Positions 12,629 through 61,544 of a DNA stretch of 64,000 bases are shown here, in pieces (the first letter of the stretch is position 1; every line of letters starts with the position of its first letter). The notes beneath the pieces are model-generated. The model was given only the letters and a program-made list of their open reading frames with translations, did not search any database and was not told where the DNA came from. A program made the position numbers and the translations under genes. This DNA comes from Candidatus Omnitrophica bacterium 4484_213 (GTDB lineage Bacteria; Omnitrophota; 4484-213). The stretch lies in assembly GCA_002085025.1 (NCBI GenBank), contig MZGK01000002.1, positions 15,341 through 79,340 of the forward strand, read 5' to 3'.

Positions 12629-13429
12629 CTACAGTGGCAGGCGGAGTTCGCCGTTTAGTTGCCCGAGCAATTTCATCGCCGTCTTTACCGGAATTGGATT
12701 TGTCTCAATGAACATCGCTTTGCAGAGAGGAAATAATTTGTAGTGCAGGTCTTTTGCCTTTTGAATATTCCCCTCTAAAAAAGCAGAGGTCATCTGGGCA
12801 ACCTCAGCTGGAACAATATTTGCCACCACCGAAACTACTCCCTTGCCTCCTATTGCCATCATCGGCAGAGTTAAAGAGTCATCGCCGGAAAGAACAGTAA
12901 TATCGCACAAAGCGAGGATTTTACTCACCTGCTCCAAACTTCCGCTTGCTTCTTTGATAGCCACAATATTGTCAATCTTGGACAATCTTGCTACTGTCTC
13001 GGGCAACATTGAAATCCCGGTGCGCGAAGGGACATTGTATAAGATAATCGGAATACCGAGCTCGGCGAGTTTCGCGTAGTGACGAAACTGCCCTTCAGAC
13101 GTGGGTTTGTTGTAATAAGGGGTGATTACCAGAGCGGCGTTAGCTCCGGCTTCTTTAGCATATTTGGTTAAATCATAGGCCTCAGCAGTAGAATTAGAGC
13201 CGGTGCCGGCAAGCACCGGAACTCTTTTATTCACTGTCTCTACCACAATTTTGATTATTCTTTTCTGCTCCTCGTGAGTAAGCGTAGCCGCTTCGCCGGT
13301 GCAGCCGCAAGGGAGAATTCCGTTTGTTCCCTGCTTAATCTGAGACTCTACCAATTCCCGCAGTTTCTCATCATCAACCGCACCATCTTTGAACGGCGTA
13401 ACCAAAGCAACATAAGAGCCTTGAAACAT
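12629..13429 (-). CDS. dapA: 4-hydroxy-tetrahydrodipicolinate synthase
   Basis: VALVTPF...GTNGILPCGCTGE...Y(N)VP active-site context. Full length 266 aa. Confidence 0.9.
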   Translation of the reverse strand: MFQGSYVALVTPFKDGAVDDEKLRELVESQIKQGTNGILPCGCTGEAATLTHEEQKRIIKIVVETVNKRVPVLAGTGSNSTAEAYDLTKYAKEAGANAALVITPYYNKPTSEGQFRHYAKLAELGIPIILYNVPSRTGISMLPETVARLSKIDNIVAIKEASGSLEQVSKILALCDITVLSGDDSLTLPMMAIGGKGVVSVVANIVPAEVAQMTSAFLEGNIQKAKDLHYKLFPLCKAMFIETNPIPVKTAMKLLGQLNGELRLPL

Positions 13430-13458
13430 TTTTCACCTCTTTACCCTGTTAAAAATTC

Positions 13459-13621
13459 ACCTCGGCGAATTCCGCCTTTGGGGGATTTAACGGGGTGAAC
13501 CTACTTCCACCATCAACATTCTGTCTGAAATATAACTCGGCCGTAATATCGGGAACAGTCGCATTTTCTGGAAGTCTTTCTATCATTTCAATTATTTTTT
13601 CTTTTACCGCGCTCACCTTAA
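13459..13621 (-). CDS. Small ORF (about 45-55 aa) resembling DUF2281/addiction-module antitoxin-like proteins
   Basis: Reverse-complement translation VSAVKEKIIEMIERLPENATVPDITAELYFRQNVDGGSRF...; not in the supplied ORF track (under 60 aa). No obvious SD. Confidence 0.25.
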
Positions 13622-13622
13622 A

Positions 13623-13946
13623 TCACTTCCTCACATTATAAACTATATCATCGGCATCAAATTGATGGTTGCCGTCATTATCAAGGAAGATAACTACTGT
13701 CCCTGCTTTAGTATTATCTATTTTTACATCACTACCAGCCGGGTCTTTTGCCGTTATTGTCCCGCCAGTTCCGCATCCCCCATTTGCTACAGTTTCATTA
13801 GTAACACAGACCATCAACCCTGCTGTTCCCAACTTCTCCACCTGCTGGCCAATGGGAGTTACTACTGTGCGGATTTTAATTTCATCAGAGAGGCAAAGCC
13901 GCGAATAACAAAACTCGCGAAGCGAGAGCCGAAGTTCCCCCTGCAC
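13623..13946 (-). CDS. Small hypothetical protein. The N-terminal about 25 aa of the ORF are a translation of the structured repeat unit, so the real start is probably internal (e.g. MVCVTNET)
   Basis: MQGELRLSLREF is the same repeat-derived peptide seen at the C-terminus of ORF 56254..57138. The remainder (GGCGTGGTITAKDPAG...DNDGNHQFD) has no recognisable family. Confidence 0.3.
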   Translation of the reverse strand: MQGELRLSLREFCYSRLCLSDEIKIRTVVTPIGQQVEKLGTAGLMVCVTNETVANGGCGTGGTITAKDPAGSDVKIDNTKAGTVVIFLDNDGNHQFDADDIVYNVRK

Positions 13947-14025
13947 CAGAACGGTGCAGGATCCGCCGAAGCCTTAGCGTAGATGAGCTGAGGATAGAAG
14001 GTTTGAAAGCAAACCTTCACTATCC
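13913..14025 (+). ncRNA. Structured repeat unit (family 4): ctcgcgaagcgag-AGCCGAAG-[variable hairpin]-CTGAGGATAG-[GC hairpin]-T-run
   Basis: Same architecture as the units at 56262, 57783 and 60727. The terminal hairpin gaaggtttg-aaa-gcaaaccttc covaries with ggaaatctgc-aaa-gcagatttcc of the other copies. Confidence 0.6.
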
Positions 14026-15798: not shown

Positions 15799-17310
<1,512 letters not shown>

Positions 17311-17376
17311 TTAAGCGGCAAATCCCTCGCTGGGGGATTTGACCGCGTGCTTCGTGCGACCAACCCTATGCCGACC

Positions 17377-36660: not shown

Positions 36661-39600
36661 CTAGAAAGCCCCACCCTTTCTAACGGGGTTTACTTCCACT
36701 GTTACTCTTTCTTTTCCTATTAACTGCTCGAGTTGAAGAAGAAAACTTTCAGTGCACTTAGCGGTTAAGGAAGAACGAATAGTGTGCTTTCCTCGCGGAG
36801 AGGAGAAAATTAAATAAAGCGGAACATCTCCTTGGTGAGCAGAAACAAGCCTTTTTATCTGCCGAAGAAGATTTTCATCGCTGTCTGCCTCTAAATTCAG
36901 AGAAATAGAAGCAGTATATTTCTGAGAAATTTGCTCTATTGGAATTAATTTCTCAGCAATTATCTTGCGTTCATTATTTCTTAAACTAATCTTTCCTTCG
37001 ACAAAGATTGGAGCATCTATTTTAACATAATTGCTTACTTTATTAAAGACCTTTGGAAAAAGGATAATCTCAATCGCCCCATTAGAAATCTCTAAATTAA
37101 AAAAAGCCATCTTCTCCCCGCGTTTGGTAACAATTTGTTTAATCTTAGTAACAACTCCCCCGACTAACACCTCTTCGTTTTCGCTGTAGTTATTTAATTC
37201 AGTAAAGGAAACGGAATATCTCTTCAGTACCTGCTCATACTCTGCTAAGGGATGACCGCTGAAATAAAAGCCCAGAAGCTCTTTTTCAAAGGCCAATAAC
37301 TGATTGCGCGGCCATTCTTTTATTGTTATCTTTTTCTCTTCTTTTCGAGGTTCAAAGTAAGAGAGATTATCAAGAAGGGATAGTTGCCCCCGACTTTTAT
37401 CTCTTTGGAGCCGATTTGCCCTCTGGAGGCTACCCTCTAAATCCACTATTAACTGGGCTCGTGGCAAATTGAAACAATCAAATGCTCCGCATTTTATCAA
37501 ACTCTCAATTACCTTTTTATTTACGAGTCTCAGATCTACTCGCTGGCAAAAATCTTCTAAAGAAAAAAAATTCTTTCTCGTCCTCGCTTTAATAATAGAA
37601 TCGATTGCTCCCCTTCCTACATTCTTCACTGCTAACAAACCAAATCTGATGCTATCTTTCTCAACAGTGAATTCAGCAAAAGATTGTTGGACATCGGGAG
37701 GTAAGATTCTTATACCCATCTTCCTGCATTCTTCTACATAATCAGCAATCTTGTCCGTATTATCCTCTTCACTGGTTAATAAAGCAGCCATAAACTGCAG
37801 AGGACAATTTGCCTTTAAATAAGCTGTCCGGTAAGAGATAAGGGCATAGGCGGCGCTATGGCTTTTATTAAAACCATAGCCGGAAAAATATTCGATAAGA
37901 TTAAATACTTTTTCCGCTACTCTTCTTCGTATCCCATTTTTTAGGCATCCTTCAACAAAAGATTCTTTTTGTTGCTCGATGACCTCGGGAATCTTTTTGC
38001 TTATTGCTCGACGCAGTAAATCTGCTTGGGTTAAACTAAACCCGGCCAGAATATGAGCAATTTGCATTATTTGTTCCTGGTAGAGGATAATCCCATAGGT
38101 CTCTTTTAAGATTGGTTTCAACTTAGGATGGTCGTATTTGATTAATTTAGGATTGTGTTTTCTCTGAACGAAATCATTAATCATTCCACTCCCTAAAGGA
38201 CCTGGGCGATGCAAAGCGAGAATAGCTATAATATCCTCAAAATTCTGGGGTTCAATCCTCTTCAATAAATCCTGCATTCCTGCACTTTCTAATTGAAACA
38301 CCCCTGTCGATTTCCCCTTGCAAAGCAGATGATAAGTCTTTTTATCGTCAAGAGGAATACTCTCAACACTGATTTCTTTTCCGGAAAACCTCCTTATGTT
38401 TTCTATTGTTTTACTAATTACCGTTAAAGTACGCAATCCTAAAAAGTCCATCTTTAAAAGACCTATCTTTTCCAGAGAAAACATAGAATACTGAGTAGCA
38501 ATCTTCCCATCAGGGCTTTTAAACAAAGGTACAATGTCGCTCAGGGGCTGCTTGGAAATTACAACTCCGGCTGCATGGGTAGAAGCGTGCCGGGTTAAAC
38601 CCTCTAGGCTCTTAGAGATATCCAACAATCGTTTTATCTGTTTGTCCTGCTCGTAAAGCTCCTTTAGGCGTGGCTCCTGATAAAGTGCTTCTTGAATGGT
38701 AATATTGAGCGTTAAGGGGACTAGCTTAGCAATCCTATCTACTTCTGAATAAGGCATTCCCATTACCCTGCCGACATCTCTGATTACTCCATGCGCGGCC
38801 ATTGTGCCGAAAGTAATTATTTGAGAAACGTTTTCTTTGCTATATTTTTGAGTGACATAGTCAATCACCTCATCCCTGCGCTGATAACAGAAATCAATAT
38901 CAATATCAGGCATCGTTATCCGCTCATAGTTCAAAAACCTTTCAAATAAAAGATTATATTTCAGAGGATTGATATCGGTTATTCCTAAGATATAAGCGAC
39001 TAAACTGCCGGCCACAGAACCTCTACCGGGTCCAACGGCAATATTATTCTTCTTAGCAAAGTTAATAAAATCCTGCACAATAAGGAAGTAAGATGCATAA
39101 CCAGATTCTTCAATTATTTTTAACTCCTGGTTCATTCTCTGGATAACCTCTTCATTTACCCTGCTAAATAATTCGCTTGGGCGAACAGCGCCTTTGGCGG
39201 ATTTAACAGGGTTTATCCCATTAAATTGCGCCTTTGACGCCCCCCCGACGGAAGTGTCGGAGAATTCGGGGTGAACTTCTTTAAACCTTTCTTTCAACCT
39301 CTGCTGACAGAGTTCTTTAAGATATTCTTTATCTGTTAGACCCTGGGGGGGAGAAAAAACAGGCATATACTTCTTACTAAAATCGAGCTCGAGATTGCAT
39401 TTATTAACGACCTTTAGCGTATTGGTCAAAGCAGAGGGAATTTCCGAAAATAACTCTTTCATCTCTTCTTCACTCTTGAGATAAAATTTATTGGTAGAGA
39501 ATCTCATTCTTTTAGGGTCATCTAGGGTAGTTTGCGTCTGAAGACAGAGAAGGATTTCATGGTTGTAGCTATCAGATTTATGTAAATAATGCACATCATT

Positions 39601-56253: not shown

Positions 56254-57138
56254 TTACTCGCGAAGCGAGAGCCGAAGTTCCCCGTAGGGGAACTGAGGAT
56301 AGGAAATCTGCAAAGCAGATTTCCGCTTTTGTTTTTTTCCTTTCCTTACTAACGGACAACGCCCACAATCAGGTTTTGTCTTTTTGCAGATATCCTTTCC
56401 TAGACGCACAAAAAGGGCGTGGAACTCGTTGAACAATTGAGCATCTAAAGGTAGGTTCTGCATAAAAAGCTGTTGAATCTCCTGATAATCTGCCTTCTCG
56501 GAAATCAATTGGAGACGCGATAATATCCGGCGGGTATAAGCATCCACCACAAACACTGCTCTATTTCCCGCATAAAGCAAAATAGAATCGGCGGTCTCCC
56601 GACCAATACCTTTAATCTCCAATAACTCCTGACGGAGAAGATGCGTCTCTTTTTTAAACATCCTTTTGACACTACCGCCGTAATTAATAAACAGAAAATC
56701 TATAAACGCCTTCAGCTTTTTTGCTTTTTCATTAAAATAACCCGCAGAACGAATTGCCTTGGCTAAATCTTCGAGCGGCACATCCCTTAACCCTCGCGCC
56801 GAAAGCAACCCTTGTTCTTTGAGATTTCTGATCGCTTTCTCCACATTTGTCCAGGCCGTATTCTGGGTCAAGATTGCTCCGGCAATTATCTCAAGGGAAT
56901 CTTCTCCAGGCCACCAATTTTGTGGACCAAATGCCTTGTAGAGCCGCTGATAAATTGTCTGGATTTTCACCATCTCTTTCCCCCCTATAAAAACAGCAGA
57001 TTCCCGCCTGGATCTAAAAAGAGAAGAGAATCTCCCGCCATCTCCCTTTAACATCCTGCGCGATAACTTTAAATTTATACCAATATCTTTATTCAAACTA
57101 TTATCTATGAGAAGTGCACCTTTTCTTTTATTTTCCAA
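56254..57138 (-). CDS. HhH-GPD base-excision glycosylase (endonuclease III-like). The N-terminal about 57 aa and the C-terminal about 12 aa of the ORF are probably spurious (C-terminus is repeat-derived)
   Basis: GPQNWWPGEDSLEIIAGAILTQNTAWTNVEKAI...IKGIGRETADSILLYA HhH-GPD motifs. The C-terminal ...FPYGELRLSLRE is a translation of the family-4 unit. Confidence 0.65.
   Translation of the reverse strand: MENKRKGALLIDNSLNKDIGINLKLSRRMLKGDGGRFSSLFRSRRESAVFIGGKEMVKIQTIYQRLYKAFGPQNWWPGEDSLEIIAGAILTQNTAWTNVEKAIRNLKEQGLLSARGLRDVPLEDLAKAIRSAGYFNEKAKKLKAFIDFLFINYGGSVKRMFKKETHLLRQELLEIKGIGRETADSILLYAGNRAVFVVDAYTRRILSRLQLISEKADYQEIQQLFMQNLPLDAQLFNEFHALFVRLGKDICKKTKPDCGRCPLVRKGKKQKRKSALQISYPQFPYGELRLSLRE
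56262..56360 (+). ncRNA. Family-4 structured unit (ccttactcgcgaagcgag-AGCCGAAG-ttccccgtaggggaa-CTGAGGATAG-gaaatctgcaaagcagatttc-cgcttttgttttttt) plus abortive start of a second unit
   Basis: On the plus strand it ends in a canonical hairpin-plus-T7 intrinsic terminator. Its reverse complement ends ...CGCGAGTAAGGAAAGGAGGTGTAAATG, i.e. the SD and start of the ACT-domain gene. Confidence 0.65.
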
Positions 57139-57465
57139 TACCCTTTGAAAATCAAGGCGTGAATTTCCTTTGTTTTTCGCTTAAGATGGATCTTTTGACA
57201 TTGATATACAATTCCCTGATTTTTATTTACCTCCCATTTACTTTGAAATGTAAGGGTGCTTATCTCTCCTATTCTTTAATTAGCCGATTATAGGAACCTA
57301 TTTCATCTCTTACTTTTGTCATAAATTATGCCTCACAGATTAAATGCAGATTGCACAATTCTCTATCGTATTTTTATCGCTGTAATCAGCATCGGATTGA
57401 AAATCCGGTGCAATAAAAAACCTTCGCAAAAACAGCAAAGGTTTTTTCATAATTCACTAAAAAAT

Positions 57466-57545
57466 ATGGCCGGCTAAACCCCGTTAGAAACGTTGCCAAA
57501 TAATTTCATTTTGGAAGGGATCCCTAACGGGGTAAACCGGCCTCT
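57466..57545 (-). terminator. Long REP-like hairpin (ggccggctaaaccccgttag ... ctaacggggtaaaccggcc) followed on the minus strand by a U-run: cspA terminator
   Basis: About 20-bp arms of the GTTTACCCCGTTAG family. Minus-strand sequence after the hairpin is atatttttt. Confidence 0.6.
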
Positions 57546-57558
57546 TTGTCTTTTTAGG

Positions 57559-57770: not shown

Positions 57771-58040
57771 CCTCCTTTCCTTACTCGCGAAGCGAGAGCC
57801 GAAGTTCCCCGTAGGGGAACTGAGGATAGGAAATCTGCAAAGCAGATTTCCGCTTTTGTCTTTTTCTTTCCTTACTCGCGAAGCGAGAGCCGAAGCCAGC
57901 CAATTTCCTTTTAAGGACAATAGAGAAGTTGTCCCTAATAATACCTGTAGCTTTAGCGCAGGTAGGCTGAGGATGGTCCCGAAGTTTCGGGGGGAATGGA
58001 GCAGGATAAATCTACTCTGCAAATTTCGCTCTCGTTTCCC
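57771..58040 (+). ncRNA. Two tandem family-4 structured units forming the long 5' leader of cspA (minus strand); the second unit is expanded with extra hairpins
   Basis: Unit A 57771-57866 is identical in its core to 56262-56345. Unit B 57867-58040 keeps ctcgcgaagcgag-agccgaag and ctgaggatgg but has a larger variable region including the ggacaATAGAGAAGTTgtcc hairpin. The reverse complement of the junction gives CGCGAGTAAGGAAAGGAGGTGAAATAAGTAATGGCAAGA (SD plus cspA start). Confidence 0.65.
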
Positions 58041-58044
58041 TAAT

Positions 58045-58140
58045 AAAACGAGTATAGCATATACTATTTTTTTCTACTTGTCAACCCTGTTAAATAACCT
58101 GGGGCAATTCGCCATAGGCGAATTATTTAACAGGGTTGAC
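58045..58140 (-). promoter_or_regulatory. Candidate cspA promoter (minus strand TTGACA-N17-TATGCT) overlapped by a 19-bp perfect inverted repeat ttgtcaaccctgttaaataa ... ttatttaacagggttgac with inner hairpin ggcaattcgcc/ggcgaattatt
   Basis: The motifs are visible. The -35 hexamer is part of the palindrome arm, a classic operator arrangement. Confidence 0.4.
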
Positions 58141-60361: not shown

Positions 60362-60717
60362 TTATCCTGAGATTTTCTTTAGTAAATCTGCAAATCTCTT
60401 GGCAAATCTTTGGCAGTTAGCTTCTACCCTTTTGTCCAAAGCGCCAATGGCTACCGGGCCATAGTGGTCGCCCTCGGAGTCGCCCTGAACAACCATTCCG
60501 TGAATAAGCATTGCCTCTAAAATGCTCAAGATAGCGGTTTCATTTCCTCCGCCGATATTATTAGAAGAAGTGAATGCTCCTCCTATTTTTCCATCCAACT
60601 TTCCTCAACCCTTTTAAGAATAACCTCCAGATTTTCTTTTTTAATGGACTCAGCGATTGTCTCAGCCATCTGTTTGGTATTCCCTGTCTTTGAATAATAA
60701 GCAATCAATACCTTCAT
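60362..60717 (-). pseudogene. WrbA-like flavodoxin (NAD(P)H:quinone oxidoreductase) in two frames with the central about 70 aa absent
   Basis: MKVLIAYYSKTGNTKQMAETIAESIKKENLEVILKRVEE (WrbA N-terminus) ends at stop 60583. A second frame gives LDGKIGGAFTSSNNIGGGNETAILSILEAMLIHGMVVQGDSEGDHYGPVAIGALD (WrbA C-terminal half). Confidence 0.5.
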
Positions 60718-61025
60718 TTTGTACCTTTTTTCCTTACTCGCCGAAGGCGAGAGCCGAAGCCCGCCTACGCTCGTAGGCGGGCTGAGGATAGGAAATCTGC
60801 AAAGCAGATTTCCGCTTTTTGTCTTTTCCTTTCTCGCGAATCGAGAGCCTGCCTGCGCCCGTAAGGGTAAGCGAAACGAAGGATAGAAATGGACGAAGTC
60901 CATTTCGCTTTTATTTATTTCCTTTCTTTGCTCGCCAGTTCCTTTTAAGGGCAATAGAGAAGTTGCCCCTAATTATACCTGAAGGTGAGAGCCAAAGCCT
61001 CGAGAGTTCAAGGCTGAGGATAAAA
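60718..61025 (+). ncRNA. Three tandem family-4 structured units between the flavodoxin gene and the wrbA-like gene
   Basis: Unit 1 (60727-60815) has ctcgccgaaggcgag and cccgcctacgctcgtaggcggg as covarying substitutes for hairpins 1 and 2. Unit 2 (60822-60905) has ctcgcgaatcgag and a terminal hairpin aaatggacgaagtccattt plus T-run. Unit 3 (60910-61025) carries gggcaATAGAGAAGTTgccc and ends ctgaggataaaag. Confidence 0.65.
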
Positions 61026-61031
61026 GTATAG

Positions 61032-61544
61032 TTAGCCATAGACATGCTGGTAGAGATTACTCTCATTTTTCAATGCATCTTTGATTACTTCGCTTGCTAA
61101 ACTTTGTTTATCAACCTTTGACTCCTGAATAGAAAATCTAAAAATTTTCTTTGCACCTTTGTTTCTCACTTCCTTCTCCATTATATTTAAACATCGCCTT
61201 ACACCGAGTCCACTCCCATAAGTAACAAATAGAATGATATCCTTGCCCTGCATACCTTTGCATTCTTCTAAATATTTATTCATTGCCGGAGCGGGTGCAA
61301 AAGCCCAAACCGGCGTTCCTAAACAAATAAGAGCGTATTCAGAAAGGTCTATCTTTATAGGTTTAATCTTCGTCTTTGCTCTCTTAAAGGCTTGCACCGC
61401 TTGAGTAAAAAATGCTTTTGGTTCATTAATAGACTCTAATTTGATTAACTCACCAGAGCCATTTTGCCTAATATGCTCAGCCAATATCTCAGCAACCTTC
61501 GCCGTATTACCGCTATGGGAGTAATAGATAATGATTGATTTCAT
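61032..61544 (-). CDS. Flavodoxin-domain protein
   Basis: MKSIIIYYSHSGNTAKVAEILAEHI FMN-binding loop and the flavodoxin-like fold. Confidence 0.75.
   Translation of the reverse strand: MKSIIIYYSHSGNTAKVAEILAEHIRQNGSGELIKLESINEPKAFFTQAVQAFKRAKTKIKPIKIDLSEYALICLGTPVWAFAPAPAMNKYLEECKGMQGKDIILFVTYGSGLGVRRCLNIMEKEVRNKGAKKIFRFSIQESKVDKQSLASEVIKDALKNESNLYQHVYG

Follow-up and report, generated by a model that had tools for sequence, protein, structure and literature searches.

Our results favour, with a confidence little better than even, the reading that a three-unit tandem array at positions 60728-61031 of the DNA analysed here (64,000 nucleotides (nt) of contig MZGK01000002.1 from Candidatus Omnitrophica bacterium 4484_213, hereafter the window) is one locus of a lineage-specific mosaic interspersed repeat family, similar in kind to bacterial interspersed mosaic elements (BIMEs) and BOX elements and co-transcribed in the leaders of genes. 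The best reading of the sequences is that the units would behave as mosaic intergenic repeats rather than as a conserved regulatory RNA. The units form a family with its own architecture, orientation and anchoring; they differ in presence and copy number between strains; hairpins are exchanged while linkers are kept; and three subfamilies meet at this locus.

Three hairpin units strung on conserved linkers

A sequence-only reading of this DNA had placed three tandem units between a flavodoxin gene and a decayed wrbA-like gene, and three units indeed run head-to-tail there, with direct-repeat families at 96 and 98 nt spacing. The canonical unit, ~70-95 nt long, consists of three short GC-rich palindromes (hp1, hp2 and hp3) strung on conserved linkers and reads, on the + strand of the window, as a T-rich or CCTTTCCTTA stretch, hp1 (CTCGC-GAA-GCGAG), linker AGCCGAAG, a variable hp2, linker CTGAGGATA(G), a variable hp3, and GC with a T-rich tail. 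Perfect inverted repeats in the array span 60758-60783, 60791-60813 and 60886-60906, with arms of 12, 10 and 9 bp, and the 314-nt array folds more stably than its dinucleotide shuffles on both strands (z = -6.1 on the - strand, -6.2 on the + strand). That the units keep a common architecture, as had been claimed, is borne out by a covariance model built without flanks (R2), which scores units 1, 2 and 3 at 77, 30 and 21.9 bits (E 1e-17, 1e-5 and 2e-3, the third marginal); R2 took the place of an earlier model with flanks (R1), which masked tandem neighbours through removal of overlapping matches. The features of the array are given below, with L numbers marking loci retrieved elsewhere.

60728-60823: unit 1, all three hairpins present
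60718-60736, - strand: UAAGGAAAAAAGGUACAAA, the mRNA-strand leader tail of unit 1 and a degenerate version of the family Shine-Dalgarno (SD) tail UAAGGAAAGGAGGUG
60737-60751: unit 1 hp1, CTCGCC-GAA-GGCGAG, 6 bp, one pair beyond canonical
60752-60759: unit 1 linker 1, AGCCGAAG
60758-60783: unit 1 hp2, AGCCCGCCTACG / CGTAGGCGGGCT, arms of 12 nt, perfectly complementary
60782-60790: unit 1 linker 2, CTGAGGATA
60791-60823, + strand: unit 1 hp3, GGAAATCTGC-AAA-GCAGATTTCC followed by GCTTTTTGTC, terminator-like on the + strand only, antisense to the genes
60824-60921: unit 2, nearest relative L046:1499-1595 (87%)
60833-60845: unit 2 hp1, CTCG-CGAAT-CGAG, weakened (4 bp), then AGCC
60857-60868: unit 2 hp2, degenerate, GCCC-GTAA-GGGT, 4 bp, GTAA loop
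60878-60885: unit 2 linker, GAAGGATA
60886-60906: unit 2 hp3, GAAATGGAC-GAA-GTCCATTTC, with a T-rich tail after it
60922-61031: unit 3, truncated, without hp3, nearest relative L044:2428-2512 (92%)
60931-60936 and 60984-60989: unit 3 hp1 arms, CTCGCC and GGTGAG, separated by the 44-nt module X
60937-60980: module X, 44 nt, inserted in the unit 3 hp1 loop, with the hairpin GGGCA-ATAGAGAAGT-TGCCC at 60949-60968 and a conserved loop (ATAGAGAAGTT-loop module)
After unit 3 hp1: AGCCAAAG, then hp2 at 60998-61013 and CTGAGGATA at 61014-61022

Several details of the earlier description can be recognised in these rows. The hp1 of unit 1 is one pair longer, its hp2 has been replaced by unrelated complementary sequence (CCCGCCTACG..CGTAGGCGGG; the cspA and ACT units have TTCCCC-GTA-GGGGAA here), and unit 3 holds the conserved-loop hairpin that is also present in unit B of cspA.

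Units lie antisense to their genes and end at Shine-Dalgarno regions

The strand on which the array had been described is antisense to every neighbour gene, and it is the reverse complement that lies in transcription units. Because all genes flanking the array are on the opposite strand, the array would be transcribed as its reverse complement; read in this way it is an mRNA leader or intercistronic spacer with the end UAAGGAAAGGAGG-N-AUG, adjoining the wrbA-like start as the sequence-only reading had it (start codon 60717-60715, reverse complement ...GCGAGTAAGGAAAAAAGGTACAAAATG). BLAST and pattern searches located four more units, belonging to three other loci, on the + strand of the window at 13914-14018, 56257-56324, 57784-57851 and 57875-57985. 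All seven units in the window are on the + strand, and the - strand holds 52 of the 54 open reading frames (ORFs) of at least 150 aa; beside this extreme gene-strand bias, the + strand GC skew of the whole window is -0.14. In nearly every array, on contigs of arbitrary orientation, both neighbour genes are on the strand opposite to the unit as written here. Each locus has a single unit or a tandem of up to four, placed between two genes of the same direction or between a promoter and its gene; the hp1 end is 13-27 nt away from the start codon downstream, and the distance at the other end varies. The order on the mRNA strand is a purine-rich tract, hp3', CUAUCCUCAG, hp2', CUUCGGCU, hp1', UAAGGAAAGGAGGUG, N5-9 and AUG.

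Promoters lie upstream of the units at cspA (TTGACA-17-TATGCT) and, in other strains, at the ACT-domain gene, which makes the units part of the 5'-untranslated region (5' UTR). No promoter was found inside a unit on either strand, and no - strand terminator inside the array. Within 6.5 kb, the four sites that most resemble terminators are hp3 hairpins followed by T-runs, all on the + strand; the stem and T-run of an intrinsic terminator are thus seen only antisense to the genes, and many unit tails are interrupted. Two sense-strand terminators lie 3' of cspA (window 57430-57558, - strand), the first a long interrupted hairpin, GGCCGGTTTACCCCGTTAG...CTAACGGGGTTTAGCCGGCC followed by ATATTTTTT, and the second a bidirectional A-run, stem and U-run, AAAAAACCTTTGC...GCGAAGGTTTTTT; judging by their form, ordinary sense terminators look unlike hp3.

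Within the window, unit-bearing leaders are the only places with the extended motif GGAAAGGAGG (plain AAGGAGG is present 23 times on the - strand) and, given this confinement, the unit seems to carry, or to merge with, the ribosome-binding site. Directly downstream of units are genes for two HU-family proteins, ribosomal protein S20, EF-Ts, GroES and CspA, and further ones for PanD, lumazine synthase (RibH), a class II aldolase, a DUF5320 protein, an ACT protein and a flavodoxin-like protein; unit-bearing genes mostly code for small, typically abundant proteins. In CSMAG_2090 (L013, L014), the sense-strand tail of two units is UAAGGCAACGAAGUACAACGAAGUAAUU, with a repeated CAACGAAGUA, in place of the SD tail, and may be another module of the mosaic.

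A lineage-restricted family with paired but variable helices

A 23-base gapped pattern compared with 185,579 species genomes matched only two Candidatus Omnitrophota metagenome-assembled genomes (MAGs; AUK068 and CSMAG_2090), and a metagenome scan gave 13 further true loci, from a few sediment samples. Five other matches of that scan and all four viral-contig matches were discarded as chance occurrences within coding sequence and without hairpins, and a loose hp3 regular expression was dropped, having matched unrelated sites. Patterns yielded 32 units in all, and R2 at a cut-off of E < 1e-5 yielded 59 (42 distinct), only in Omnitrophota contigs. Rfam returned only tRNAs and sub-threshold noise for the whole window at gathering thresholds and for the array region at E up to 10; BLAST of the array against plasmid and phage collections gave zero matches, and a literature search on Omnitrophota repeats found nothing relevant.

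In the R2 alignment, 97% of stem cells form standard pairs, and 16 of the 25 pairs show changes on both sides. The covariation score is 0.40, compared with 0.13 in shuffles and at most 0.18 in slid controls; for four of the five measures, the covariation score among them, none of 500 shuffles equalled the observed value, and for the fifth one did. Sliding the partners by 1-3 columns lowers pairing to 22-51%. Variation is concentrated in hp2 and hp3, and hp1 is nearly invariant. Compensatory pair changes beyond chance, the generic mark of a structured RNA, are present, with the reservations that the alignment is model-fitted, that the sequences are related and that many of the changes are swaps of whole modules; the invariance of the linkers is in part ascertainment, all loci having been retrieved with linker-requiring patterns. 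The divergence under structural constraint proposed in the sequence-only reading accordingly stands as far as compensatory changes exceed the shuffle and slide controls, which they do by far, and falls short in that much of the divergence is replacement of whole hairpins.

Turnover between strains and a probable mosaic origin

Loci in other strains, retrieved by exact-protein look-ups, differ in the number and content of their units:

cspA leader: 0 units in L018, L020 and L021; 1 unit in L022; 2 units in the window, L019 and L024; CspA identical in all
ACT leader: 1 unit in the window, L023 and L039; 3 units in L018 and L019 (in L019 an exact 92-nt tandem duplication)
PanD leader: 1 versus 2 units; coding-sequence identity 97%
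EF-Ts leader: linkers and hp1 alike, hp2 and hp3 entirely different; coding-sequence identity 97%
HU leader: unit retained in two genomes, linkers identical, all three hairpins different; coding identity 87%
Array locus: identical three units in the window, L016/L028 and L031; likewise in L030 and L032 up to the contig ends
Array locus: 0 units in L055-L057; downstream protein 96% identical

Array length, which the earlier reading had singled out as a possible difference between strains, is therefore 3 versus 0 at the array locus, with other counts elsewhere, and in distant relatives (downstream protein 87% and 76% identical) units are absent from this locus.

The closest relatives of the three units are found at other loci. 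For unit 1 they are units in the RibH and HU leaders of AUK068 (92% identity), for unit 2 the L046 unit at the distal end of the GroES leader array (87%), and for unit 3 a unit in L044 (92%); among themselves the three have only patches of 8-25 nt in common. Because the units match other loci at 87-92% and one another only in patches, the array is a juxtaposition of pre-existing subfamilies, and the proposal that the units had diverged inside a tandem array does not hold. The order of unit 1 and unit 2 is seen again in the array of an IHF-like leader. Loops are found in both orientations (AACT/AGTT, AAA/TTT), which points to inversion of palindromes at the DNA level. To judge from these sequences, palindromic modules are pooled and shuffled through recombination between conserved linkers, the behaviour of a mosaic interspersed repeat. 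Much of the apparent covariation is likewise whole-hairpin replacement by recombination, as in the EF-Ts leader, and since pairing is partly assured by swaps of palindromic modules, point compensatory changes would speak more strongly for a constraint on the RNA.

Presence/absence polymorphism is also what would be expected if the units were a non-autonomous transposable element moved by a dedicated enzyme, that is, the relic of a single-stranded DNA transposon of the IS200/IS605 type (palindrome-associated transposable element, PATE) or of the type formed by repetitive extragenic palindromes and their tyrosine transposases (REP/RAYT), with a purine-rich SD-like sequence or TTAC as the target. 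Such elements have subterminal hairpins and insert in one orientation beside a short target. The strict orientation of the units, their hairpins at both ends, the lack of terminal inverted repeats and of a target duplication, the TTAC that often stands ahead of hp1, and the GCGAAGC core of hp1 and hp3, a motif of extraordinarily stable DNA mini-hairpins, all agree with this origin. However, the end hairpins are highly variable and unconserved, whereas HUH transposases recognise specific hairpins; the tetranucleotide flanking hp1 varies (TTAC, TTTC, TTCC, TTGC, TCAC); and the copies are mosaic, not near-identical recent ones. Moreover, no transposase gene turned up, though no systematic search was made, and the strand with the stable loops would be the leading-strand template if genes are co-directional with replication, while such transposons use the other strand. 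A transposon relic thus strikes us as very improbable.

Signals on the two strands

Sequence signals for the strand that matters are mixed. On the sense strand, the SD is predicted to be mostly paired (mean unpaired probability at most 0.5) in 16 of 17 leaders, often with a conserved CCUC. This pairing agrees with a reading of the unit as a cis-regulatory leader, in which a three-way junction with pyrimidine linkers (CCUC in CUAUCCUCAG; CUUC/CUCUC in CUUCGGCUCUCG) would sequester the SD until a trans factor or temperature opens it, so that HU, S20, EF-Ts, GroES, CspA and other genes for abundant proteins would share a single post-transcriptional regulon. The conserved junction nucleotides beside helices that vary yet still pair, the location of units in 5' UTRs with promoters upstream, the high expression that is the common theme of the downstream genes, and the retention of the HU-leader unit across 13% coding-sequence divergence are further points in its favour. 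Nevertheless, we consider such a leader unlikely. The units are dispensable, strains with identical CspA having 0, 1 or 2; the internal units of an array have no SD to control; the partners of the SD differ from leader to leader, in helices of ~4 bp; an invariant SD/anti-SD gives no scorable covariation; the conservation of the linkers is partly ascertainment; and the special loops (GNRA, GAA) are on the other strand.

That other, + strand is favoured by G.U versus A.C counts of 29:13, a weak signal from a model-fitted alignment biased towards G.U, and by per-hairpin energies, an unbiased test (hp2 13:5, hp3 15:9, module X 9:3; hp1 3:3). Its loops are 68% purine, with C(GAA)G triloops dominant and GAAA and GUAA tetraloops, and its hp2 is framed by CC/GG and a tandem G.A / A.G internal loop. 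Together with the GNRA or GNA loops and the hp3 hairpins that make up the best terminator-like sites, these features would suit a function on the + strand, either as an antisense-facing intrinsic terminator (an insulator), which would stop antisense transcripts before the promoter or the upstream gene, or as a terminator-ended cis-antisense RNA, whose 5' part (CACCUCCUUUCCUUA) is complementary to the SD region. Yet no promoter-like sequence was found ahead of the units on this strand, the sequence 5' there being the antisense of unrelated coding regions. In addition, hp3 G.U counts are equal on the two strands (11 vs 10), as are the z-scores of the whole array, the hp2 wobble of unit 3 is on the sense strand, many T-tails are interrupted (GCTGTTATTTT, GTTATCC) and would make poor terminators, and unit 3 is without hp3. 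We give a + strand function decidedly little credence.

A model for the spread and effects of the units

In the mosaic-repeat interpretation that we favour, units would multiply and be rearranged as DNA, through gene conversion, unequal crossing-over or template switching, with the conserved linkers and the purine-rich GGAAA(GG) sequences flanking every unit as probable anchors and the extended SD regions of strongly expressed genes as favoured landing sites. The only orientation to persist would be the one in which the terminator-like hp3 and its T-run face antisense and spare downstream expression; selection against a sense-facing terminator-like end, together with homology with strong SD regions, plausibly explains this orientation. 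In the mRNA, the hairpins would act generically, as a structured spacer uncoupling the two flavodoxin genes, and possibly protect the mRNA 5' end, with the SD partly occluded by the pyrimidine-rich linkers; they would not be a gene-specific sensor.

Several observations weigh against this interpretation. The linkers and hp1 are near invariant and the HU-leader unit is kept at 87% HU identity, which purifying selection on a functional RNA would also fit. The GCGAAGC core on the + strand with the strand-asymmetric loops, and the G.T wobble that module X keeps on the same strand, are not what a neutral DNA repeat would predict. No transposase, terminal inverted repeat or target-site duplication was found (no systematic transposase search was made), and the mechanism of spread is one that we infer. 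The outgroup C-terminus of flavodoxin-1 (ALKNEN) resembles the first five codons of the array-bearing allele, leaving the polarity of the difference between three and zero units ambiguous. Finally, repeats of this kind make short-read assemblies break or collapse, as in L017 and L029, which end inside the array, and some of the copy-number differences are possibly artefacts.

Mobility by recombination and a function in RNA could also be combined, in a portable cis-regulatory cassette of three helices, junction linkers and its own SD tail that would place genes for abundant proteins under shared post-transcriptional control. The control could run through a sense leader whose ribosome-binding site is occluded until a common factor or temperature frees it, or through antisense RNAs that end in a terminator and cover the ribosome-binding site. 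Such a cassette seems to us quite unlikely.

Omnitrophota are uncultured, and their non-coding DNA is essentially unannotated. Hairpin repeats at ribosome-binding sites affect gene calling, MAG assembly and operon inference in the lineage, as they break short-read assemblies, alter gene ends and part genes that overlap in sister strains; R2 can be used to annotate the units. Anchored at the strong SD regions of genes with high expression, and with a terminator-like end that invariably faces antisense, the units make for an unusually clean pattern, which raises the question whether they are parasites that are tolerated and that selection against polar effects has shaped, or modules of expression open to reuse.

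Genes flanking the array

The array lies between the following features:

60715-60717, - strand: ATG of the downstream flavodoxin-like gene (Flavodoxin_1, WrbA-like), a pseudogene in the window
60362-60714, - strand: rest of the decayed flavodoxin-like gene, with a 118-nt deletion between 60599 and 60600
61032-61544, - strand: upstream flavodoxin gene, 170 aa, Flavodoxin_4

Unit 3 is 10 nt from the stop codon of the upstream gene. The first 45 codons of the downstream gene match flavodoxin families, and its homologues carry the JGI name NAD(P)H dehydrogenase (quinone). This gene had been described as decayed, and rightly so: the internal 118-nt deletion, with ACTT microhomology on its flanks, results in a frameshift. 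On otherwise identical metagenome scaffolds (L028, L031) the intact gene encodes a 157-aa Flavodoxin_1 protein, and it is intact in all other strains seen. In the sister strains (L055-L057), the two flavodoxin genes, which the array sets apart in the window, overlap by 4 nt, and the C-termini of flavodoxin-1 in array-bearing and array-free alleles are not alike.

Module X and a second repeat family

Module X is an independent insert of ~44 nt, TTCCTT(T/A)TAAGG-GCRATAGAGAAGTTGC-CC..TA(T/A)TA(C/T), located within the hp1 loop, within hp2 or between units, with an invariant loop. Unit B of cspA holds the module, with its hairpin GGACAATAGAGAAGTTGTCC, at 57903-57947 inside hp2, and it is found elsewhere at window 17269-17301 and in L005, L011, L022, L044 and L045. 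Its stem retains a G.T wobble or an A-T pair on the + strand of the window, and on the sense strand a TATAAT/TAATAT-like hexamer, without a -35 element, stands just 5' of the hairpin. At window 17167-17376, two - strand genes are separated by a spacer of 210 nt, rich in GC, that has long-range inverted repeats GTAGGGTTG...CAACCCTAT and a module-X-like hairpin; its folding is not significant against shuffles (z = -1.5), and it has no Rfam matches.

A second interspersed repeat family, of ~60 nt, has 12-bp terminal inverted repeats, ACCCTGTTAAAT ... ATTTAACAGGGT, enclosing two small hairpins, and occurs at window 58079-58140 and 13380-13460 (- strand) and 39130-39215, and in L001, L002, L004, L006, L013, L018, L019 and L061. 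It shares palindrome modules, such as GTCCGCC-AAA-GGCGGAC, with the three-hairpin family, and its right end, together with the TGACA that follows, supplies the -35 box (TTGACA) in the promoters of cspA and the ACT gene; in L061, a more distant relative, it is also upstream of the flavodoxin-like gene.

At window 56254-56400, an EndoIII-like ORF (HhH-GPD) runs on into a repeat unit. Compared with L019, L023 and L039, a single deletion in the window, with the junction CCGTTA|GTAAGGAAAGG, took the native C-terminus of EndoIII, the ACT promoter and one or more units, and the ACT gene in the window is consequently without its own promoter.

Comparison with known systems

Judged by Rfam, the collections searched and a literature search, the family has not been described before; the kind of element is well known. 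Among other candidates, a CRISPR array was rejected on account of units that abut and differ in sequence, with only sub-threshold CRISPR direct-repeat noise on the hp2 palindrome (18 bits vs a gathering score of 35). The CUGAGGA sequence with its tandem G.A pairs recalls a kink-turn, and the same sequence a hammerhead; there is no bulge between hp2 and the G.A pairs in the one case, no GAAA after hp3 in the other, and no Rfam match in either. Group II intron domain V, attC sites, tracrRNA or omega-RNA-like scaffolds and a CsrA sponge were rejected too, either for lack of their defining features or because no route to transcription exists. Nor are the units classical miniature inverted-repeat transposable elements, as their ends (hp1 vs hp3/tail) are not complementary and filled and empty sites at cspA and the array locus have no consistent duplication, only purine/A-rich microhomology.

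Structured 5'-leader RNAs such as riboswitches, RNA thermometers and the cspA 5'-UTR thermosensor likewise lie in the 5' UTR just before the SD, that of cspA included, and likewise have conserved junctions, variable helices and predicted SD occlusion. In contrast to these, the Omnitrophota units are not bound to one gene family, form tandem arrays, belong to no Rfam family (no match at E up to 10), and are present or absent among strains with identical downstream proteins, which sets them apart from a gene-specific leader.

At the DNA level, the mini-hairpin motifs GCGNAGC / GCGNNAGC are matched on the + strand by the hp1 core GCGAAGC and by the hp3 loop regions GCGAAGC, GCGAAAGC and GCGTAAGC, and the GCGAAGC core forms an extraordinarily stable DNA mini-hairpin (PMC13037366). 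This likeness is limited to a 7-8-nt core and known from sequence alone, and the tetraloop versions are equally GNRA loops in RNA.

Closer parallels come from pneumococcal repeats. As described in PMC3049150, the BOX elements of S. pneumoniae (boxA-boxB(n)-boxC) are, like our units, modular, with variable internal modules and predicted folding when co-transcribed; their orientation mirrors coding bias, and the expression of neighbours can change. The same source describes the SPRITE repeat as a Rho-independent-terminator-like stem with a U-rich tract. The terminal inverted repeats of BOX pair together, whereas the ends of the Omnitrophota unit do not; SPRITE is enriched at the 3' ends of convergent genes, whereas the terminator-like end here faces antisense, upstream of start codons; and, unlike BOX and SPRITE, the Omnitrophota units bear an SD-like tail.

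The BIMEs of E. coli and its relatives, made of REP/PU palindromes, are likewise intergenic mosaics of short GC-rich palindromes on conserved linkers, inside transcription units, with a variable unit number per locus and strain-dependent copy number; their effects (mRNA stabilisation, attenuation) come from generic hairpins (background in part from PMC3049150). The Omnitrophota family shares this mosaic of palindromes and conserved linkers, its intergenic location and its variable copy number. BIME units alternate in orientation, whereas all units of all arrays here are direct, head-to-tail on one strand; in place of a conserved REP sequence with a GTAG-type head, the Omnitrophota palindromes are very diverse, with hp2 and hp3 stems of many unrelated sequence types. 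The two families have no sequence similarity, and the present one, limited to one Omnitrophota lineage, is anchored at the SD region of the downstream gene rather than at gene 3' ends.

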